From an uncultured Verrucomicrobiae bacterium (GTDB taxonomy: Bacteria > Verrucomicrobiota > Verrucomicrobiia > Limisphaerales > Palsa-1400): a DNA stretch of 64,000 nt. Made by a program: the position numbers and the translations under genes. Position 1 is the first letter of the stretch. Every line of letters begins with the position of its first letter. Below, in pieces: positions 1 through 54,090 of this stretch. Under the pieces are notes generated by a model. That model made no database searches. It saw only the letters and a list, made by a program, of their open reading frames with translations, and was not told the origin of the DNA. Location of the stretch: contig CAVPOM010000006.1 in NCBI GenBank assembly GCA_963707025.1, forward strand, positions 737,191 through 801,190, read 5' to 3'.

Positions 1-2122
1 GTGGATGTCGGCTGGGGCGACTTGATCTTTCACCTGGGTGACGATCCCGGCACCCGCAGCATCGTCATTTACATGGAAACCATCGGCGACGCCCGCGCCT
101 TCCTCTCCGCGGCCCGGGAAGTTGCCCTGACCAAGCCCATCATCGTCATCAAGCCCGGCCGCAGTTCCGCGGCGGCCAAGGCGGCTGCCTCGCACACCGG
201 CTCATTGACCGGCAGTGACGAGGTGTTGCAGGCGGCCTTCCAGCGCGCCGGGGTGTTGCGGGTCGAGAACATCTCCGAGTTGTTCGACATGGCCGAAGTT
301 CTTTCCAAGCAGCCGCGTCCCCGGGGCCCGCACCTGACGCATCATCACCAATGCCGGCGGTCCGGCCGTGCTGGCCACGGACATGCTGATCACCGGCGGC
401 GGCCAGTTGGCGGAACTGACGCCCGAAACGATGGCGGCCTACAACCAGATTCTGCCCCCTACCTGGAGCCATAACAACCCGGTGGACATCATTGGCGACG
501 CCGGCCCGGAATTATACGCCAAGGCGGTGGACCTTGCGGCCAAAGACCCGAATACCGATGGCTTGCTGGTGATCCTGACGCCCCAAGCCATGACGGATGC
601 GACCGCGACGGCCGAGCAACTCAAGCCCTTCGCCCGCCTGGAAGACAAACCGATCCTGGCCAGTTGGATGGGGGCGGACGAAGTGGAGGGGGGGGAGGAC
701 ATTCTCAACGCCGCCAATGTGCCGACCTTTAAATATCCGGACCGGGCGGCCCGGGCCTTCTGTTACATGTGGCGCTACACGCAGAACCTCCGCGCCCTCT
801 ACGAAACTCCCGTGGCGGCGCCCGAATCGGAGGATGTGGCCAGCGCGCGCCACGACGCCGACGCCATGCTCAAGGCCATTCGCCACCAGGGACGCAGCCT
901 GCTGACTGAATTTGAGTCCAAGCAACTTCTGGCCGCGCATGGCATCCCTACTGTGGAAACCCATGTCGCCGCCACTGAGGCCGAAGCCGTGGGGCACGCC
1001 ACCCGCTTGGGTTTTCCCGTCGTGCTCAAGCTCTACTCGGAAACCATCAGCCATAAGACCGACGTCGGCGGCGTGCAGTTGAACCTGCGCAATGCGACCT
1101 CGGTGCGCCGCGCCTGGCACGCCATTCAAAACTCCGTCGTGGCCAAGGCCGGCGAGGAACATTTCCTGGGCGTGACGGTCCAGCCGATGATCAAATTGGA
1201 GGGCTACGAGTTGATCATCGGCAGCAGCATTGATCCGCAGTTCGGACCGGTGCTGTTGTTTGGCGCTGGCGGTCAGTTGGTGGAAGTCTCCAAGGACCGC
1301 GCCCTGGCTTTGCCGCCGCTCAATGCCACCCTGGCCCGGCGCATGATGGAGGGCACCCGCATCCTCACCGCCTTAAAGGGCGTCCGTGGGCGCGCCGCGG
1401 TGGATGTGCCCGCGCTGGAACAATTGCTGGTGCGCTTCAGCGAGCTGGTGGTGGCGCATCCGTGGATCAAGGAAATTGACATCAATCCGCTCATCGCCGC
1501 GCCCGGACGCCTCCTGGCCCTGGACGCGCGCGTGGTGCTGCACCCGCCCACGACCCCGGAAACGGCGCTGCCCACTCCCGCCATCCGGCCCTATCCGGTG
1601 CAATACGTCGGGGTGTGGAAATCGAAGAACAAAAAGCGCATCGTCATCCGGCCCATCCGTCCGGAAGACGAACCCTTGATGGTGAAGTTCCACCAAACCC
1701 TCTCCGAACAAAGCGTCTATCAACGCTATTTCAGCGTCCTGCAATTGTCGCAGCGCACCGCCCACGAACGGCTGACGCGGATTTGTTTCAATGATTACGA
1801 CCGCGAGATCGCGCTGGTGGCCGAACACCGGGAAACCCCGGGGGCGGAACCGTGCATTCTGGGCGTCGGGCGCTTGAGCAAGCTGCACGGCGTGAACGAG
1901 GCCGAATTCGCCCTCCTCGTCAGCGACCCCTGGCAGGGGATCGGGCTGGGCACCGAACTGCTCAGGCGCATCGTGCAGGTCGGCCGCGAGGAGAAACTGA
2001 AACGCCTTATCGGCCACGTTCTGGCGGACAACCACGCCATGAAGCTGGTTTGCCAGCAGGTCGGGTTCAAAGTCGGGCACGAGGCTGATCACCACGATCT
2101 ATTGGCCGAATTCAAGTATTAA
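1..2122 (+). pseudogene. Pat-like bifunctional ADP-forming acyl-CoA synthetase / GNAT acetyltransferase; 5' end lies outside the window; frame interrupted near 335-345
   Basis: ORF 1..474 ([29 protein letters not shown], CoA-ligase-type domain) continues in another frame as ORF 368..2122. The junction reads ...RGPHLT / [16 protein letters not shown]. An ATP-grasp region and a C-terminal GNAT motif (QGIGLGTELL) follow. Confidence 0.8.
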
Positions 2123-2203
2123 CTCATCCGCCGCGCGGGGGAGCGCGCGCCGGGGTGGCCGGCAAGCACCTGCCATGGCGCGGACCGCCGCAAAGATCAA
2201 CCC

Positions 2204-4231
2204 ATGATTCCCAAGCTGACTACTTGCACTTTCTGCGGCACCGGCTGCGGCATTTATTTGGAAACCGAGGGCAACCGGATCGTTGGCGCCTATCCGAGCA
2301 TGTCGCATCCGGCCAACAAAGGGAAGATTTGCCTGCGCGGCTGGCATGTGCATGAAGTGGCCAGTTCCCCGGACCGCGTCTTCAGCCCGCTGCTCCGCAG
2401 GAACGGCCGGTTTGAGAAAGCCTCCTGGGGTGAGGCCCTGGACTTCGTCGCCTCACGCCTCGGGAAAATCCGCGACCAATACGGCCCCGAGTCGGTCGCC
2501 TTCCTCGACTCGCCCCGTTGTTCCAACGAGGAAGCCTACCTCACGCAAAAGCTGGCCCGCACCATCATCGGCACCAACAACGTGGATCACGGCGCCGGTG
2601 TCTATTGCAACAACTCCATCAATGTCCTCCTCGACATGCTCGGCATTGCCGCGGCCACCAACTCCATCGGCGAACTGGCCCGCAGCGGCGTCATCATCGT
2701 GGACGGCGTTGACCTGGGCCGCCAATTGCCGACCATTGGCGGCTGGGTCATTCGCGCAAAACTTAGCGGGACCCGGCTCATCGTCGTGGATTCCCGCCGT
2801 CATCGGGTGGCGGAAAACGCCGACATTTTCCTGCAGATCAAACCCGGCACCGAATCCCTCCTCTACGGCGCCCTGGCCAAGGTCATCGTGGACCGTGGCC
2901 TGCTGGACCTGCCCTTTGTCAAGGCCCGCTGCGAGGGGTGCGAAGCGTTTCTGGCGCGGGTGCGGGATTACGATCTGCTCCAGGCCGCCGAAGGTTGCGG
3001 CGTGCCGGCGGAGTTGATCGAGGAGGCGGCCCTGGCCTACGGCCGGGCGAAGAGCGCGGCCATCCTTTATTCGACCGGGGTGGAAGCCCGCGACGAGGAC
3101 AGTATCCGCGGCATCATCAACCTGGCGCTGCTCACCGGCAACTTGGGCAAGGAAGGGGCGGGCGTGTTCCCCTTGACCGAGCACAATAATTTGCAGGGCG
3201 TGTGCGACATGGGCATGTTGCCGGACCGGTTGCCGGGTTATCAGTCCATCCACAATCCCAAGGCGCGCGCCGCGCTGGAAGGCCTCTGGCGGGCGACGGT
3301 GCCCGCCATGCCGGGGGTGGGAGCCGACACGCTCTTTGCCGGGGGCGGGCGCGCGCCGCTCAAGGCGCTCTGGCTTGGGCGTTATGACCCGATTAGCACG
3401 GCGTTTTTCGGCGACGCCGCCGCCGCGCTGGCCCGCTGCGAACTGGTCGTCGTGCAGCATTTGTTCATGACCGAATCCACCGCCTTCGCCGATGTGGTGC
3501 TGCCGGCCACGGCCTTCGGCGAGGAACGTGTTTCCTTCACCAGCACCGAGAGACGGATTCAAATCGCCGAGCGCGTGATTGACCCGCCCGAGGGTCCCAT
3601 GCCCGCCTGGGAACAACTGACTCGCCTGGCCCGGGCCATGGGCGCCCCCTGGAGTTATGAGTCCGCCGCGGAGGTCATGCGCGAGATCGGGGAGGTCATC
3701 CCCTTCTACAGCGGGGCCAGCCATGACAACTTGATGCGCGATTACGGCCGCCAATGGCCCTGCACCACCGACCGCCCGCTCGGCACCGCGCGTCTGTTTG
3801 CCGGGGATGAAATGGACCGGCCTTTCAAGTTTGTTCCCGTCGCCCGGCCGCCGAAACCGGCCGGAAATCCGGACGGGTTCCCCTTCACTTTGGTCTTCGG
3901 ACATTCCCTTTACTATTGGCATCAAAATGTCCTCATCCGGCACAGTGAGACACTCAAGCGCGAATATCGTCTCCTGTTGCTGGATTATCCGGACGGCTTC
4001 GTCGAGATCAACAGCGACGACGCCAAGCGCCTGGGCATCCGCGACGGCGACCGGATCCGCCTGAGCACGGCCGGCGGCACGCTGACCTCCGCGGCGCGAG
4101 TGACGCCGGAAGTGCGCAGCGGCACGGCGTTTGTTCCGTACTTTGTGCGGCAAATGAAACGGGAAATGCTCGGCCCCACTGGCGACGGCACAGCCCTGGT
4201 TCCGGTGCGCGTGGAAAAGGAGGCGTCATGA
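2204..4231 (+). CDS. Molybdopterin oxidoreductase, formate dehydrogenase H (FdhF)-like catalytic subunit
   Basis: 675-aa intact ORF. N-terminal 4Fe-4S motif CTFCGTGCG...C(43)LRGW and the GTNNVD block typical of FdhF-type Mo/W-bisPGD enzymes. Its stop overlaps the next gene's start (4228/4231). There is no in-frame TGA. Confidence 0.85.
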   Translation: MIPKLTTCTFCGTGCGIYLETEGNRIVGAYPSMSHPANKGKICLRGWHVHEVASSPDRVFSPLLRRNGRFEKASWGEALDFVASRLGKIRDQYGPESVAFLDSPRCSNEEAYLTQKLARTIIGTNNVDHGAGVYCNNSINVLLDMLGIAAATNSIGELARSGVIIVDGVDLGRQLPTIGGWVIRAKLSGTRLIVVDSRRHRVAENADIFLQIKPGTESLLYGALAKVIVDRGLLDLPFVKARCEGCEAFLARVRDYDLLQAAEGCGVPAELIEEAALAYGRAKSAAILYSTGVEARDEDSIRGIINLALLTGNLGKEGAGVFPLTEHNNLQGVCDMGMLPDRLPGYQSIHNPKARAALEGLWRATVPAMPGVGADTLFAGGGRAPLKALWLGRYDPISTAFFGDAAAALARCELVVVQHLFMTESTAFADVVLPATAFGEERVSFTSTERRIQIAERVIDPPEGPMPAWEQLTRLARAMGAPWSYESAAEVMREIGEVIPFYSGASHDNLMRDYGRQWPCTTDRPLGTARLFAGDEMDRPFKFVPVARPPKPAGNPDGFPFTLVFGHSLYYWHQNVLIRHSETLKREYRLLLLDYPDGFVEINSDDAKRLGIRDGDRIRLSTAGGTLTSAARVTPEVRSGTAFVPYFVRQMKREMLGPTGDGTALVPVRVEKEAS

Positions 4232-5304
4232 AGGCGCGCCTGCTGGCCCTGGCCGACGTACTGAAGATTACGGACCTGCTGCGCGGACGCGGCTACGAGG
4301 TCATCGCGCCGTTCTGCGGGCGCGGCCGGGACAGTTACTTCGACACCGTGACCGACGCGAATCGCATGCAGGTGCAGATTCATCTGCCCAATCCGTATTA
4401 CCCTCCCAAGCGCTTTGTCTTTCCGCACATCGAGCGCTTGCTCAAGGTTCGAGGGCCCAACGGTGCCATGAAGATTGAGCCGACTTATGAGGAGCCCCGC
4501 CGCGCCATTTTCGGCATCCGCTCCTGCGATGTCGCCGGCCTGTGGCATCTGGACCGTTTCTACCTGGGCCGTGATTTCCGGGATGTCTATTATGAGAAGC
4601 GCCGCAAGAATCTCTTCCTGGTCAACGTCGTTTGCACCGACCCGGCGCGCGACATTGGCGAGGACTGCTTTTGTCTGTGCGCCGACACCGGACCGGCCGC
4701 GCGCGATCATTTTGACTTGCAGCTCATGGACCTGGGTGACGGTGATTTCATGGCCGTGGCCGGAACGCCGGCTGGCGAAGAACTTTTCTCCGAGCCGATT
4801 TTCCGCCAGGCGACCGCCGCGCATGTGGAACGCCGCCGCGCTCTTCTGGCCGGGGTGCGCCAGCAATTCCGCACCACGACCAGTTGGTTTCCCGCCACCG
4901 TCCGCTACGTTTCGCAGGGCGCGATCCTGGACAAGACCTGGGAGGAAATCGGCAACCGCTGCCTGGAATGCGGCGGCTGCACCTACGTCTGTCCCGCCTG
5001 CACTTGTTTCACCGTGTCCGACCGCCAGGTGGGGCCGGAACAAATCGAGCGCGTGCGGATTTGGGATTCCTGCGCCCTGCGCGGCTTCACGCGCATGGCG
5101 GGCGGTTTCAACCCCCGCCGCGCGGTGCATGACCGCCGCAACCGCCGCTTTTTCCGCAAGCTGGCGTATTACTTCATCCAGCGCGAACTGTCCATGGCCT
5201 GCGTCGGCTGCGGCCGTTGCGCCGCCGTCTGCCACGGCGACATCGGCATGCCCAGCGTCGTGGAGATGATCCGGCGCGCCGCGCCTAAGAATGAGAAGTC
5301 TTAG
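4228..5304 (+). CDS. 4Fe-4S cluster protein, AsrA / sulfhydrogenase beta (HydB)-like
   Basis: 358-aa ORF with the motifs CLECGGCTYVCPACTC and CVGCGRCAAVCHGDIGM. It overlaps both neighbouring genes. Confidence 0.72.
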   Translation: MKARLLALADVLKITDLLRGRGYEVIAPFCGRGRDSYFDTVTDANRMQVQIHLPNPYYPPKRFVFPHIERLLKVRGPNGAMKIEPTYEEPRRAIFGIRSCDVAGLWHLDRFYLGRDFRDVYYEKRRKNLFLVNVVCTDPARDIGEDCFCLCADTGPAARDHFDLQLMDLGDGDFMAVAGTPAGEELFSEPIFRQATAAHVERRRALLAGVRQQFRTTTSWFPATVRYVSQGAILDKTWEEIGNRCLECGGCTYVCPACTCFTVSDRQVGPEQIERVRIWDSCALRGFTRMAGGFNPRRAVHDRRNRRFFRKLAYYFIQRELSMACVGCGRCAAVCHGDIGMPSVVEMIRRAAPKNEKS

Positions 5305-6678: not shown

Positions 6679-8678
6679 ATGATGACTCCCGAAAAGGCCG
6701 TGTTTGCGTCCATGCTCGTCTGCATCGCCGGAGCGCTGCTGACGTGGCTGACCGCCCGGAACCGGACGCTGGCGGGCTGGCTCGCCTTCCTGGTGACCGC
6801 CGCGAGTGCGACCCTCGTCTTCCTGGCCGTGGGGACCGTGCTGGCTGGCGGCGCTTCCGCCGGCTCGGAAGCATTTCTCCCGCTGCCGGCGCTGGGTTTC
6901 GCCCTGCGCTTGCATGTGGACGGATTGACCGCGTTGTTCCTGCTGCTGGCGGCGCTGATCGCGGTGCCGGCTTCGTTTTATTCCATTGCCTACATGAGGC
7001 ATTATCCCGATTATGGCGTCGCCCGGTATTATCCCTGGTTCCTCCTGTTCCTGGCGGCGATGTTCGGCCTGCTCAGCACCACGGACATGATGTGGTTCTT
7101 CCTCATTTTCTGGCAGATGATGACTCTGCCCGGCTACGCGCTCATCCGTTTCGAGCACAAAAAACCGGGCAACATTCGCGCGGCCAACAAATTTCTGTGG
7201 ATGATGCAAATCGCATGCGCGGCGACTCTCCTCGGCGCGCAGATTCTGGCCGGCGCGGGCGCCTCTGCCAATGCGGGCATGGGGGTGAAGTATGACTTCG
7301 ACACCGTGAGCGCGAATCTGCCGGCGTTGTTGCACTCCCACCCAGTCCTCACGGCGACGGCCTTCGCGCTGTTCCTCGCCGGTTTTGGCATCAAGATGGG
7401 CATGTGGCCCTTTGGGCAGATATGGCTGCCGGACGCGCACCCCGCGGCGCCTTCCCCGGTCAGCGCGATGCTTTCCGGTGTCATGATCAAGACCGGGGTT
7501 TATGGCCTGATGCGCTATTTCCTCTGGCTGACGCCCGCGCCGGCGCAGGCCGCTTTCCCCTGGGACGCTGGGGTTTGGTGGTGGCGGTGCTTGGGACCAT
7601 CACGCTTTTCACCGGCACCATGCAGGCCCTCAAGCAGGAGCAGACCAAGCGCCTGCTGGCCTTCCACAGCATCGGCCAGGTCGGCTACATCCTGCTCGGT
7701 TTCGGGGCCTGCATGGCGCTGCTGCCGGCCGCAGGACCGGAGGCTGCCACACTGGCGGCCCTGGGCATGACCGGCGCGCTCTTTCACACCCTCAACCACG
7801 GCGTCTTCAAGGCGCTGCTCTTCCTCAACGCCGGCTCCATGCTCCACGCCACCGGCACGCAGGACCTGAACAAAATGGGCGGTTTGCTCAAATACATGCC
7901 GCTGACGGCTGCCACGGCGCTCGTCGCCTCCCTCTCCATTTCCGGCGTGCCCTTGTTCAACGGCTTCGCCAGCAAATGGACGATTTACGTGGCGACGGTG
8001 CAAGGCAGCCATCTGGCCGGCTATCTGGCCGTGTGCGCCGCCATTGCCATCCTGACCAGCGCACTGACCCTGGCCTCGTTCGTCAAGTTCTTTGGGGCCG
8101 GCTTCCTGTCACGCACAAGCGCGCTGGTGAAGGAGAAGGCCGCCTGCCGGCGCCGGCTGGAGGTTGGGATGATCATGCAATTACCGCAGTTGATGCTGGC
8201 GCTGATCTGCCTGCTGCTGGGGATCATGCCGGCCATTGCCTGCAGCCTGATTCAGAGCGCGCTGGCGGCAAGCCCTCATGGTTTTGGCCAGGCCCTCGGC
8301 CGCGCGGTGCCTGCCCCAGGCAACCTGTGGGCCGGCCTGTCCGGGACCGGGTTGCGTTGCCTGTTCGTTCCGCTGGCCTTGCTGGCCGTCCTGGCGCTGG
8401 CGCTTTTTGCGGCCGGGTTTATTTCAAAGCTCGGCGGCGCGCCGCGCCGCGCCTCGCCTCCCTGGCTTTGCGGCTACGCGCGCGAGGCGGAATGCAACCG
8501 TTACGTGGCGCACGGCTTTTACGGCGAGATCAAACGTTATTTCCGCTGGCTCGGCGGCGCACCCGCGCCGCAGCACGAATCCTCTCCTAATCCTAATCTT
8601 AATCCTAATCTTAATCTTAATCCTAATCGTAATCTTAATCCTAATCGTAATCCGAATGAATCCCGTCTTCGACCATGA
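6679..8678 (+). pseudogene. hyfB: Hydrogenase-4 component B / formate hydrogenlyase subunit 3 (NuoL/ND5-like membrane subunit); frame interrupted near 7555-7575
   Basis: ORF 6679..7770 is homologous up to ...MIKTGVYGLMRYFLWL. Homology continues in ORF 7404..8678 from ...WGLVVAVLGTITLFTGTMQALKQEQTKRLLAFHSIGQVGYILLG. The C-terminal tail (P/L/R)N x12 is encoded by the hexamer array. Confidence 0.85.
8586..8657 (+). repeat. Tandem hexanucleotide array, 12 units of CYTAAT-type (cctaat/cttaat/cgtaat/ccgaat)
   Basis: Read directly from the sequence: cctaat cctaat cttaat cctaat cttaat cttaat cctaat cgtaat cttaat cctaat cgtaat ccgaat. It lies inside the 3' end of the hyfB reading frame. Confidence 0.95.
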
Positions 8679-8695
8679 AAAGCTACAAAAAGGAG

Positions 8696-8725
8696 ATTAA
8701 GATTAAGATTATGATTAAGATTAAG
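8696..8725 (+). repeat. Inverted partner array, 5 units ATTAAG (attaag attaag attatg attaag attaag) flanked by AGGAG on both sides
   Basis: ATTAAG is the reverse complement of CTTAAT. The array lies 38 nt downstream of the first array and 35-70 nt upstream of the hycE start (8765). Confidence 0.95.
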
Positions 8726-8764
8726 AGGAGCAGAGACCCATGCGCCTTTTGAAGGAACCTTGAA

Positions 8765-10454
8765 ATGATTGCGCGCGAAAAACTGGATCAGTTGCAGGCA
8801 AGGTGGGCTTCCGCCATCCGGCGGGCCGACTTGCCCTCCGACCGCTGCCTGTTCGTCTTCGTGGAAGCGTCCGCTTTGAAGGGCGTGTGTCAGTACGTTT
8901 TTCGCGATCTGAATGCCCGCTATGTGACCAGCATCGGGGCGGATGACCGGCCCTTCTCCGGTTCGTTCCTGGTGGCGCACCATTTTGCCTTTGATCAGGA
9001 CCATGTATTGTGCAGCATCCTGGCGGAGATTCCGCCCGGCGATCATCCCAGAGTGGACAGCATCTCGGAGGTGGTGCCCCCGGCGAATTGGGCCGAGCGG
9101 GAAATGCGCGATCTGGTGGGCATCGAGCTGACCGGCCATTCCTATCCCAAGCGCCTGGTCCTGCCGGACGGCTGGCCGGAGGGCGTCCACCCGCTGCGCA
9201 AGGACATCCCCTGGAATTTTGTGCCCGAAGGCTACGATGAGGAACGCGAATTCAAGTTCGACGAACCGCCCGAAGGCTGCACCGTCGTGCCGTTCGGCCC
9301 GTTTCATCCCACCCTGGATGAACCGGCCCATTTCCGGCTCTACGTGGACGGCGAGCGGGTGCGCGGGTGCGAATACCGCGGCTTCATGGCCCATCGCGGG
9401 ATCGAGAAACTGGCCGAGTCGGTGCTCAGCTACAACGACATCCCGATCATGGCCGAGCGCATCTGCGGCATCTGCGGCTGCGTGCATAACGTGACCTACG
9501 CGCAGGCGGTGGAAAGCGCCGCGGCCTTGCAAGCGCCGCCCCGCGCGGAGTATCTGCGCACCATCATGCTGGAACTGGAGCGGCTGCACAGTCATCTCCT
9601 TTGGGTCGGGCTGGCCTGCCACATCGTCGGTTTTGACACTTTGTTCATGCAATGCTTCCGCATTCGCGAGCCGGTCATGTGGGTGGCGGAGAAAATCACC
9701 GGCAACCGCAAAACTTACGGCCTCTGTGTCATCGGCGGGGTGCGGCGGGACTTGACGGATGAGTTGAAGGCCGAACTGCAACAGGTGCTCGCCGGGCTGG
9801 AAACGGAATGGCAGGCAGTGACCGGCGCGGTGCTGAAGGACCGGAACATCCAGCAGCGCACGCGCGGGGTGGGCATCGCCGACCGCAACTTGGTCAAGGA
9901 AGCCGGGCTGATCGGACCGGTGGCGCGCGCGGCGGGTGTGGAAATTGATTGCCGCCGCGATCATCCTTATGCCGCTTATGACCGCGTGGCTTTCGAGGTC
10001 ATCACCGCCGCCGACGGCGACGTTCTGGGCGCGGCTGGTGGTGCGGGCGCGAGAAGTATTTGAGTCCATTAAAATCATCCGGCAATGCCTCGACAAAATG
10101 GAAAGCGGGCCAATCCAGTTGGAGTTGAAGGACGAATTGCCGGTTGGCCGGCTGGGCATGTCAAGCATCGAAGCCCCGCGCGGGGAGTGTCATCACTTCG
10201 TCATCACCGGCGAGGGCAACCGTCCGCGCCGCTGGCGGGTGCGCGCCCCCACCTATCAGAATCTACAGGGCGTTCCGGCGATGATCAAGGACCAGCAACT
10301 GGCGGACATGACGATTACGCTGGGCAGCATAGACCCGTGTTTCTCCTGCACCGACCGTCTCGAAACCATTGACATCAAGTCCGGAGCGATCAAAGTCTGG
10401 TCGCCGGAAGAAATGCTCAAATTGGGCCAAGCCAAACAACGAATAGAGCCATGA
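8765..10454 (+). pseudogene. hycE: Group 4 [NiFe]-hydrogenase large subunit (HycE/HyfG-like, NuoC-NuoD fusion); frame interrupted near 10020-10030
   Basis: ORF 8765..10063 carries the NuoC-like N-terminus and the L1 Ni-binding motif RICGICGCVHNVTY. ORF 9936..10454 carries ...ARLVVRAREVFESIKIIRQCL and the L2 motif DPCFSCTDR followed by a 31-aa C-terminal extension. The junction is at GDV / (W)ARLVVR. Confidence 0.9.
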
Positions 10455-11164
10455 AAACAACAAGGCCATTTGCCACATCATGGTCAGCGACATTCCTCGC
10501 CGTGCTTTCGGCACAAGCCCAAGGCACATTTCAAAACCTGAATTTTGAGTCCGCTAATTTGTCGCCGATCGTATCGGGTCAATATGGAGGGGAGGTTGCG
10601 ATCAGTTCAGCCTTGCCGGGATGGAGCGCTACAATCGGCGGAGTTGCAGTGACACAGGTTTTGCAAAACAATTACACCCTTGGAGAAGCAAGCATAAGCA
10701 TCTTTGGCCCGAGCTGGAATGACGTTGACCCCGGCATTATTGACGGAAACTATACTGTGTTTCTGCAAGCGTTTAACCCAGGCCAAGGCAATGTGTCGCT
10801 GTGGCAAACCGGCACGATTCCGGCAAATGCGGCTTCGCTTCAATTCAGCGCTTGGAACTACACGTCAGTTAACGAAGCTTTTTCTGTGTCTTTCGCCGGT
10901 AACAGCTTGTCCCCGGTTTCCCTCGGCTCCGGACAATCCGCATCCGGACAAGCTTACACCGTCTACGGTGTCAGCATAGCCCCTTATGCTGGTCAGACAG
11001 GGCAACTCGAATTCACAGCCTTCGGTGGTCAAGGCCCGGACTGGATCGAGCTTGATGACATCGCGTTTTCCCCAAACGGCGTGCCCGAACCCAGCACGCT
11101 GGCGCTCGTCGTCATCGGCGGACTGGCGCTGGCCGCCCGCCGCTGGCGCAAAGTGGCTTCATGA
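10451..11164 (+). CDS. PEP-CTERM sorting-domain secreted protein
   Basis: Signal peptide (MKTTRPFATSWSATFLAVLSAQAQG). C-terminal VPEPSTLALVVIGGLALAARRWRK. ATGA start/stop overlap with hycE. GC is lower than the flanks. Confidence 0.85.
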   Translation: MKTTRPFATSWSATFLAVLSAQAQGTFQNLNFESANLSPIVSGQYGGEVAISSALPGWSATIGGVAVTQVLQNNYTLGEASISIFGPSWNDVDPGIIDGNYTVFLQAFNPGQGNVSLWQTGTIPANAASLQFSAWNYTSVNEAFSVSFAGNSLSPVSLGSGQSASGQAYTVYGVSIAPYAGQTGQLEFTAFGGQGPDWIELDDIAFSPNGVPEPSTLALVVIGGLALAARRWRKVAS

Positions 11165-54054: not shown

Positions 54055-54090
54055 CCCAATCTTAATCTTAATCTTGATCTTAATCCTCAT
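54055..54090 (-). repeat. Third copy of the hexamer repeat family: on the minus strand AGGAG-atgagg-attaag-atcaag-attaag-attaag-attggg
   Basis: The plus strand reads cccaat cttaat cttaat cttgat cttaat cctcat ctcct. It lies 115-150 nt upstream of the gspE/pilB start, in sense orientation relative to that gene. Confidence 0.9.

Follow-up and report, generated by a model that had tools for sequence, protein, structure and literature searches.

A stretch of 64,000 nt from an uncultured Verrucomicrobiae bacterium (contig CAVPOM010000006.1, positions 737,191 to 801,190; this whole stretch is called the window here) carries an operon of the formate hydrogenlyase (FHL) type, with genes in the order FdhA, Fer4, NAD-binding subunit, HycI, HyfB, HycE, HycD, HycF, HycG, HypA, and HypB. 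At the hyfB-hycE junction, two arrays of AT-rich hexamers face each other in opposite orientation. They are very probably the stem arms of a gutted cassette with a gene of family PF05635, members of which were found at many other loci. Coordinates of the features are collected in Table 1.

Table 1. Features of the window that bear on the hexamer arrays and their surroundings
Feature	Position	Strand	Description
Possible scar of a second cassette	5285..5304	+	CTAAGAATGAGAAGTCTTAG at Fer4/NAD-binding gene junction
Native hyfB coding sequence	6679..8585	+	Proton-antiporter-like FHL membrane subunit; Pfam PF00361/PF00662
Arm 1, left stem arm	8586..8657	+	12 CNTAAT hexamers; (P/L/R)N tail when translated in the hyfB frame
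Cassette-gene remnant	8656..8700	+	ATG AAT CCC GTC TTC GAC CAT GAA AAG CTA CAA AAA GGA GAT TAA
Present hyfB stop (TGA)	8676..8678	+	Within the cassette loop, 87 nt 5' of the hycE ATG
Arm 2, right stem arm	8696..8725	+	5 hexamers ATTAAG ATTAAG ATTATG ATTAAG ATTAAG; pairs with arm 1 in folds
Probable outer right end of the element	8726..8746	+	AGGAGCAGAGACCCATGCGCC; boundary uncertain by ~6 nt
Displaced native hyfB 3' end	8747..8768	+	TTTGAAGGAACCTTGAAATGA; carries, in relatives, a hyfB stop that overlaps or adjoins the start of hycE
hycE	8765..10442	+	Pfam: NiFe hydrogenase large subunit fused to a 30-kDa domain
Solo hexamer array	54055..54090	+	CCCAAT CTTAAT CTTAAT CTTGAT CTTAAT CCTCAT; between divergent ORFs (open reading frames)

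Arm 1 reads CCTAAT CCTAAT CTTAAT CCTAAT CTTAAT CTTAAT CCTAAT CGTAAT CTTAAT CCTAAT CGTAAT CCGAAT, the 12th unit being degenerate. Tandem Repeats Finder gave a period of 6 with 12.2 copies and an 18-nt super-period (CCTAAT-CNTAAT-CTTAAT) with 96% identity. The spacer between the arms is 38 nt long (8658-8695) and holds the present hyfB stop, AGGAG stands on both sides of arm 2 (8691-8695 and 8726-8730), and the hycE ATG at 8765 is 35 nt past the second AGGAG. The positions of the arrays, the length of the spacer, and the AGGAG brackets had been given in a preliminary description of this DNA and were confirmed in the sequence, as was the translation of arm 1 as a tail of HyfB; the hyfB frame continues across the arm as ...SSPNPNLNPNLNLNPNRNLNPNRNPNESRLRP before the stop. 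G+C content falls to 0.33 at 8600-8699, compared with 0.6-0.74 in the flanks. With up to two mismatches allowed, the pattern CTTAATCTTAAT occurs 21 times in the window, where 0.76 matches would be expected, and 21 was not reached in any of 100 shuffles.

When 8560-8790 was folded, the arms paired over about 28 bp, in agreement with the pairing of up to about 30 bp already proposed. The fold has -59.3 kcal/mol (z -4.8) on the plus strand and -87 kcal/mol (z -6.8) on the minus strand; the latter is stronger because the C-A mismatches of the sense strand turn into G-U pairs in the antisense. A scan of 8000-9200 around the arrays showed no promoter-like site, and a terminator scan of the same region gave none at the arrays and a single terminator-like site at 8970-8982, outside them. 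The stem is A/U-rich and is not the G+C-rich stem with U tract of an intrinsic terminator. In Rfam, the region gave no family above threshold, only sub-threshold matches to plant miRNA hairpins, and four intact cassettes from other loci gave no matches.

The loop between the arms holds the remnant of a gene. The segment 8656-8700, one frame off hyfB, translates as MNPVFDHEKLQKGD and a stop, that is MNPVFDHEKL, QK, and GD-stop. This is an in-frame fusion of the first 10 codons (MNPVFDHEKL) with the last 3 (GD-stop) of a PF05635/TIGR02436 gene from which about 110 codons are deleted. The FDHEKL start is shared with intact genes found by motif search, which open with M..(L)FDHEKLDVY after a CNTAAT array and end in ...GGA GAT TAA or TAG, with the stop within the first unit of an ATTANG array; in the remnant, too, the first unit of arm 2 overlaps the stop codon. 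The FDHEKL genes, in loci fetched for their hexamer arrays only, encode about 120-130 aa, and their products score as PF05635 '23S rRNA-intervening sequence protein' (E 1e-18 to 1e-22) and as TIGR02436 'four helix bundle protein', with XCC0516 (PDB 2GSC) as the nearest solved structure. Remnants equivalent to that of the window are present at locus L073 and at the second junction of L002. The AGGAG pair had been taken for part of the hycE leader, a role that falls away for the left one, as it is the final GGA GAT codons of the cassette gene; the right one probably belongs to the element or its flank and not to a Shine-Dalgarno sequence placed for hycE. The hycE gene retains a native AAGGA 8 nt 5' of its ATG.

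Two sets of loci were compared with the junction. For the array-selected set, four CYTAAT units were scanned against one genome per species, which gave at least 113 stretches, and 80 loci were listed. For the gene-selected set, metagenomes were scanned with an alignment of the proteins alone, and the best 80 of at least 552 relatives were inspected. Going by record titles, bacteria of the PVC (Planctomycetes-Verrucomicrobia-Chlamydiae) group account for at least 50 of these 80 array-selected loci, and the rest are scattered over other phyla. The array-bearing PVC bacteria include Verrucomicrobiota (Akkermansia, Lentimonas, Limisphaerales, and the isolate Chthoniobacter flavus Ellin428), Lentisphaerae, Kiritimatiellia, and Planctomycetota. 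Among the 173 arrays at the array-selected loci there are 40 adjacent pairs in opposite orientation and 6 in the same orientation, and the CNTAAT arm leads in 34 of the 40 inverted pairs. The preliminary description held that its proposal would fall if orthologous junctions lacked the arrays and if arrays occurred randomly, with no inverted pairing. The five orthologous junctions described below are indeed empty; the arrays usually come as inverted pairs.

Loop sizes of the array pairs are bimodal, 10-85 nt in 29 pairs and about 375-490 nt in 7 pairs. Short loops recurrently hold a start codon fused to ...CAC GAA GGA G followed by ATTA, as in L073 (MNRLFDHEK..GD), L113, L091, L035, and L064, and the short loops with fused start and end codons represent a decay series via internal deletion. 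The intact cassette is about 440-600 nt long and consists of about 5-6 CNTAAT units, a PF05635/TIGR02436 gene of about 125 codons, and about 5-6 ATTANG units, with the left array 0-60 nt 5' of the gene. By inspection, hexamer arrays also precede the gene at nearly all of the best 80 gene-selected loci, with the reverse complement following it, and the unit has lineage variants such as CGTAAT, CATAAT, CTTACT, and CTTGCT. Local alignment of the two sides was made at 70 loci with enough flank, and 54 non-redundant ones scored at least 36, with a median arm of 34 nt. Cognate arms pair better (-84 kcal/mol) than non-cognate (-66 kcal/mol) or shuffled ones (-55 kcal/mol), and rare unit variants are mirrored across both arms in L102, L125, L172, L147, and L178. 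The intact cassette of L120, at 1055-1530 with its gene at 1106-1483, folds with a 31-bp closing stem around its whole ORF (z = -5.5). Other copies likewise sit between protein-coding genes. By a longest-ORF heuristic, the cassette has the orientation of the upstream gene at 28 of 35 loci and of both neighbours at 20 of 35, and at gene-selected loci the right arm often adjoins the next start codon. Taken together, these copies would form a family with many members at operon junctions, mainly of PVC bacteria, and, judged from their sequences, a variant of the theme known from intervening sequences (IVS) of rRNA with S23p genes. Full-text literature searches on the repeat strings and the family names found no description of a PF05635 cassette flanked by hexamer arrays. 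The earlier remark that no described element of this form was known appears to be right.

Further observations on single copies were made. In L178 and L186, the last right-arm unit is ATTATG and gives the ATG of the downstream gene (MKKRVVLGVTGSIAAHKA...), which looks like CoaBC, so that a neighbouring gene can owe its start codon to the element. In L110 (about 830-1735), an intact and a truncated cassette stand in tandem, and their near-identical arms and leaders suggest a local duplication. A ATGCGCCC-type motif lies 3' of the right arm in 9 of 60 gene-bearing copies (L123, L131, L135, L143, L146, L158, L161, L168, and L170), 7 of which also have the complement GGGCGCAT... 5' of the left arm. 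The pair GGGCGCAT/ATGCGCCC is present in L152 as well, outside this count, and the arms of L137 reach 150 nt. As only 9 of 60 gene-bearing copies have the motif, it was rejected as the true terminus of the element; the cassettes may sit inside another palindromic repeat or have developed from one. The probable outer right end of the window's element, AGGAGCAGAGACCCATGCGCC, is similar to the sequence on the right side of L125 and to the outer motif ...ATGCGCCC that about 15% of the gene-bearing copies have.

The nearest HyfB proteins are from metagenome-assembled genomes of Verrucomicrobiota. Homology of HyfB orthologues stops at 8585, exactly where arm 1 starts, and the whole PN tail is therefore foreign to HyfB. 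Orthologues end mostly in ...GGAPAPxPEKSADLKEH or ...PEGTLK, and a minority has short PN/LN tails (P0002, P0021, P0033, and P0040). The ends ...LKEH and ...EGTLK are one DNA (GAAGGAACAYTGAAATGA) read in two frames (L118 11915-11935, L201 1150-1169, window 8751-8768), and an upstream indel decides whether stop and start overlap as ATGA or stand 1 nt apart. The junction is empty in L118, L117, L119, and L202, where the hyfB stop overlaps the hycE ATG (...GAAGGAACxCTxAAATGA), and in L201, the closest relative (91% identical), which reads GAAGGAACATTGAAATG and has its stop 1 nt from the hycE start. Being absent from these five junctions, the element is no conserved regulatory RNA of the hyfB-hycE junction. 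The empty sites of L201 and L202 and the outer motif also led to the rejection of two earlier candidates, namely 8727-8768 as a wholly ancestral hyfB tail (GAETHAPFEGTLK and stop) and 8740-8763 as an upstream ORF for coupling, since only about 8747-8768 is safely native.

Other relatives have kept parts of the element. L002 (HyfB about 75-80% identical) has the same remnant before hycE, with 7 + 3 units and a homologous loop. In this locus (375-4388), hyfB is a tandem duplicate (654 and 662 aa), and each copy ends in hexamer arrays followed by a cassette-gene remnant. In L001 (HyfB 87-88% identical), only the outer units of both arms are left, and in L003, seven left-arm units run into the hycE start. 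The sequence AGGAGCAGAGACCCATGCGCC at 8726-8746 is kept at the second junction of L002 and in L001 and is absent from the empty sites. Unit numbers across the relatives are about 3, 3-7, 7, and 12, and the steps are multiples of six, which bears out the claim that changes in unit number keep the hyfB frame.

With a probability of about 85%, the arrays of the window are the stem arms of a gutted PF05635 cassette, a decayed insertion at the hyfB-hycE junction and not a purpose-built switch. The two inverted hexamer arrays would be the two arms of the cassette's terminal inverted repeat. The cassette, or a derivative of it that had already lost its gene, would have inserted into the final codons of hyfB in a verrucomicrobial ancestor of this genome. 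Of the gene, about 110 codons are gone, and what is left is a hairpin of 140 nt, whose loop retains the first 10 and last 3 codons. It can be read from the sequence that HyfB has lost a native tail of about 8 residues and now carries 31 residues from arm 1 and the loop, that the insertion has moved the hyfB stop 87 nt from the hycE start and so broken the stop/start overlap, and that arm 1 has been enlarged since then by slippage of 6 and 18 nt. The family would be spreading as a selfish element that hitch-hikes in operons. By analogy with the rRNA IVS, the double-strand-specific RNase III would find a substrate in the A/U-rich stem, about 30 bp long, of the polycistronic transcript. The relic of the window is most likely neutral or mildly disruptive baggage and no selected regulator.

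Several observations weigh against this reading. The arms of the window are no longer mirror images, as the variable position is C-rich in arm 1 and always A in arm 2, and this asymmetry places C-A mismatches in the sense RNA. Across the aligned arms of the family, 14% of 2231 positions are mismatched; sense-compatible and antisense-compatible transitions are about equal (45 and 47), with no bias towards G-U wobble, and 92 transitions stand against 218 transversions, with no excess of transitions. The lack of wobble bias means that there is no sign of selection on an RNA stem, and with such a mismatch spectrum the idea of a stem conserved as RNA was dropped. The patchy distribution among relatives clustered by HyfB identity is a further difficulty, since the window and L002 share a remnant that closer relatives lack, and repeated clean loss, recombination, or site-specific re-insertion is therefore needed. 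No consistent target-site duplication was found in the flanks of 70 loci beside the outermost paired bases, where the tandem repeats of the arms blur the boundaries. Neither transposase nor recombinase was found in the element, PF05635 being the sole gene of the full-length copies, and cleavage of the stem by RNase III is argued purely from analogy. Apart from these points, a 9-bp repeat in L152 was considered as a target-site duplication and rejected, as it is part of a longer outer palindrome. Duplex energies over the whole flanks slightly favour the antisense (42 vs 24 loci, p = 0.008). Complementarity of the arms may be inherited or maintained at the DNA level; correction of quasipalindromes is one possible route to this.

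The preliminary description explained the arrays by a locally evolved device of translational coupling or attenuation, in which ribosomes that finish hyfB melt the stem and expose the AGGAG and the AU-rich leader of hycE. The arms can indeed pair over about 28 bp, arm 1 is translated with the hyfB stop in the loop, and the remnant has been kept in two diverged genomes, the window and L002. This explanation is nevertheless very unlikely and not supported. The closest orthologous junctions do without the hairpin and have a direct stop/start overlap, its loop is a remnant of a PF05635 gene, and the identical architecture surrounds an intact gene at hundreds of unrelated loci. Moreover, the left AGGAG serves as the last codons of that gene, hycE has its own AAGGA, and the sense stem suffers from C-A mismatches while the antisense strand folds better. 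The same description named, as a fallback, a simple-sequence contingency locus or a recombination element. Slippage of the arrays that would switch or tune hyfB or hycE accords with the varying unit number among relatives and with the 18-nt super-period, a mark of recent slippage, but steps of 6 nt never shift the frame, which is kept at 3, 7, and 12 units. The arrays lie, in addition, in a C-terminal tail that is not conserved and in a spacer that is not translated, away from promoter and start codon, the scans revealed no promoter-like site, and the arrays belong to a dispersed family of elements and not to hyfB or hycE. A contingency locus is thus extremely improbable, and of the fallback only the part on recombination came closer to the truth.

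A different possibility is a non-autonomous transposon resembling miniature inverted-repeat transposable elements (MITE), whose arrays would be multi-copy binding sites of a transposase or recombinase encoded elsewhere and for which the PF05635 gene would be mere cargo. Terminal inverted repeats in many dispersed copies, the ratio of 29 gene-less short to 7 gene-bearing forms among the array pairs, and the presence/absence polymorphism at orthologous sites all fit such an element, and the missing wobble bias suggests a constraint at the DNA level. It is doubtful all the same, as no consistent target-site duplication was recognized and a transposase was seen next to no copy. The full-length copies, whose only gene has no transposase domain, are no autonomous parent that encodes a transposase. 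Nearly every copy of the PF05635 subfamily has arrays, which argues that gene and arms are one unit and not cargo and vehicle. That the arrays arose by faulty assembly or sequencing has a practically negligible probability; the frameshifts in the window are typical of long-read consensus errors, but the same arrays at the junction occur in independent ENA and JGI assemblies, and hundreds more copies come from unrelated projects, including the isolate Chthoniobacter flavus Ellin428.

The nearest described system to the PF05635 cassette is the rRNA IVS. IVS with S23p ORFs are hosted by Leptospira, Coxiella burnetii, Brucella, and Xanthomonas, and that of Coxiella measures 428 nt; RNase III cuts its 28-bp terminal stem, and its loop carries an S23p ORF preceded by tandem heptamers in variable number (PMC4990558). 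Both kinds of element enclose a PF05635/TIGR02436 ORF between terminal inverted repeats that form a stem of about 28-31 bp, are of similar size (about 430-500 nt), and have short tandem repeats of variable copy number that precede the ORF. In both, the ORF is prone to decay and short hairpin forms without it exist, and both are co-transcribed with the host gene and have no promoter of their own. The closing stem of about 25-30 bp that is typical of an IVS is found here as well (about 28 bp in the window, 31 bp in L120, and a median arm of 34 nt in 54 loci), and so is the S23p/PF05635 ORF in the loop, complete in intact relatives and reduced to 10 N-terminal and 3 C-terminal codons in the window. 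In contrast to IVS, which are inserted in helix 25 or helix 45 of the 23S rRNA gene, the cassette lies at junctions of protein-coding operons, here at the 3' end of hyfB. Its stems are made of tandem AT-rich hexamers (CNTAAT/ATTANG), and its many copies are found mainly in PVC bacteria. By analogy, the cassette would work like, or at least is built like, an IVS, but it is none.

Less close are several other groups of repeats. Correia repeat-enclosed elements of Neisseria (CREE), enterobacterial repetitive intergenic consensus (ERIC) sequences, and repetitive extragenic palindromes with their mosaic elements (REP/BIME) are dispersed short inverted-repeat elements between co-transcribed genes. 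All of these can lengthen or truncate neighbouring ORFs and have terminal repeats of unique sequence. Correia hairpins are processed by RNase III, and this alters the fate of the mRNA; a TA duplication is present in Correia elements, and a gene-bearing parent is lacking. Such hairpins are a good functional analogue of the gene-less form in the window, but the cassette differs in its tandem-hexamer arms, its gene-bearing parent, and the lack of any duplication found. Short tandemly repeated repetitive (STRR) sequences of cyanobacteria are lineage-specific tandem units of 6-7 nt, dispersed over the genome and mostly intergenic. They share with the cassette arrays the dispersed, lineage-specific short units, but they are heptamers and are not described as inverted pairs around a gene. 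Avd, the accessory protein of diversity-generating retroelements (DGR), is a basic pentamer that binds nucleic acid and reverse transcriptase, and with its homologous four-helix-bundle fold it is classed with PF05635 (PMC10053308). Unlike in DGR, the surroundings of the cassettes examined contain neither a reverse transcriptase nor a template or variable repeat. Avd genes are not known to lie within stems of hexamer arrays.

These likenesses can be joined in one broader reading, which is put forward as a tentative and rather improbable one. The cassettes would be an abundant and so far undescribed IVS-like class of mobile elements at operon junctions of PVC bacteria, in which the hexamers bind a pentameric S23p/Avd-like protein and the element is excised or copied as RNA. 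Within this reading, the 5-6 hexamers per arm may be a specific binding register for a pentameric ring, comparable to the trp RNA-binding attenuation protein (TRAP) on triplet repeats. The element may be excised from mRNA by RNase III or copied via an RNA intermediate, and the gene-less hairpins may be non-autonomous derivatives that act as processing sites and uncouple cistrons.

A second cassette site was recognized in the same operon at the Fer4/NAD-binding gene junction. An intact cassette occupies this site in L120 and L130, L001 has a degenerate one there, and the site is empty in L117 and L118. In the window, the sequence CTAAGAATGAGAAGTCTTAG matches by eye, with no formal alignment, the right end of the intact cassettes of L120 and L130 and of the degenerate one of L001, and it may be a scar of excision or decay of a second cassette. 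The solo array at 54055-54090 showed no inverted partner in the 211 nt read downstream, and no gene remnant was recognized there.

The operon carrying the relic may itself be decaying. In the assembly, hyfB is split by one frameshift near 7524-7560 (in tblastn with HyfB of L118, residues 1-294 match at 6679-7560 and residues 284-636 at 7524-8585), and hycE has one near 10025 (residues 1-419 at 8765-10024 and 420-558 at 10026-10442). Relative to the intact orthologues, these frameshifts could mark pseudogenes or errors of the long-read consensus. In L001, hycE is split too, and an insertion sequence (DDE_Tnp_1) lies downstream. An ORF of 237 aa with a PEP-CTERM motif is located at 10451-11164, between hycE and hycD, two genes that overlap in L118. 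The third array at 54055-54090, the frameshifts of hyfB and hycE, and the end of HyfB homology at 8585 had been missed in the preliminary description.

Taken alone, the window has a modest message, that of a relic, and its value is that of a pointer to the family of hexamer-stemmed PF05635 cassettes. For annotation, it matters that host proteins gain repeat-peptide tails from cassette insertions and that translational coupling is lost. Since the early 1990s, the rRNA IVS and their S23p/Avd-like proteins have posed questions of origin, mobility, and purpose, and until now only a handful of rRNA-borne copies could be compared. The cassettes provide a large sister population in ordinary operons, with at least 552 gene copies in metagenomes and at least 113 array stretches. 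They show filled, empty, decayed, and scarred states at orthologous sites, and target choice, pathways of decay, processing by RNase III, and recognition of the repeats by the protein thereby become accessible to comparative genomics and to simple biochemistry in culturable hosts such as Chthoniobacter flavus. If the broader IVS-like reading is true, the rRNA intervening sequences would be one special case of a broader family.

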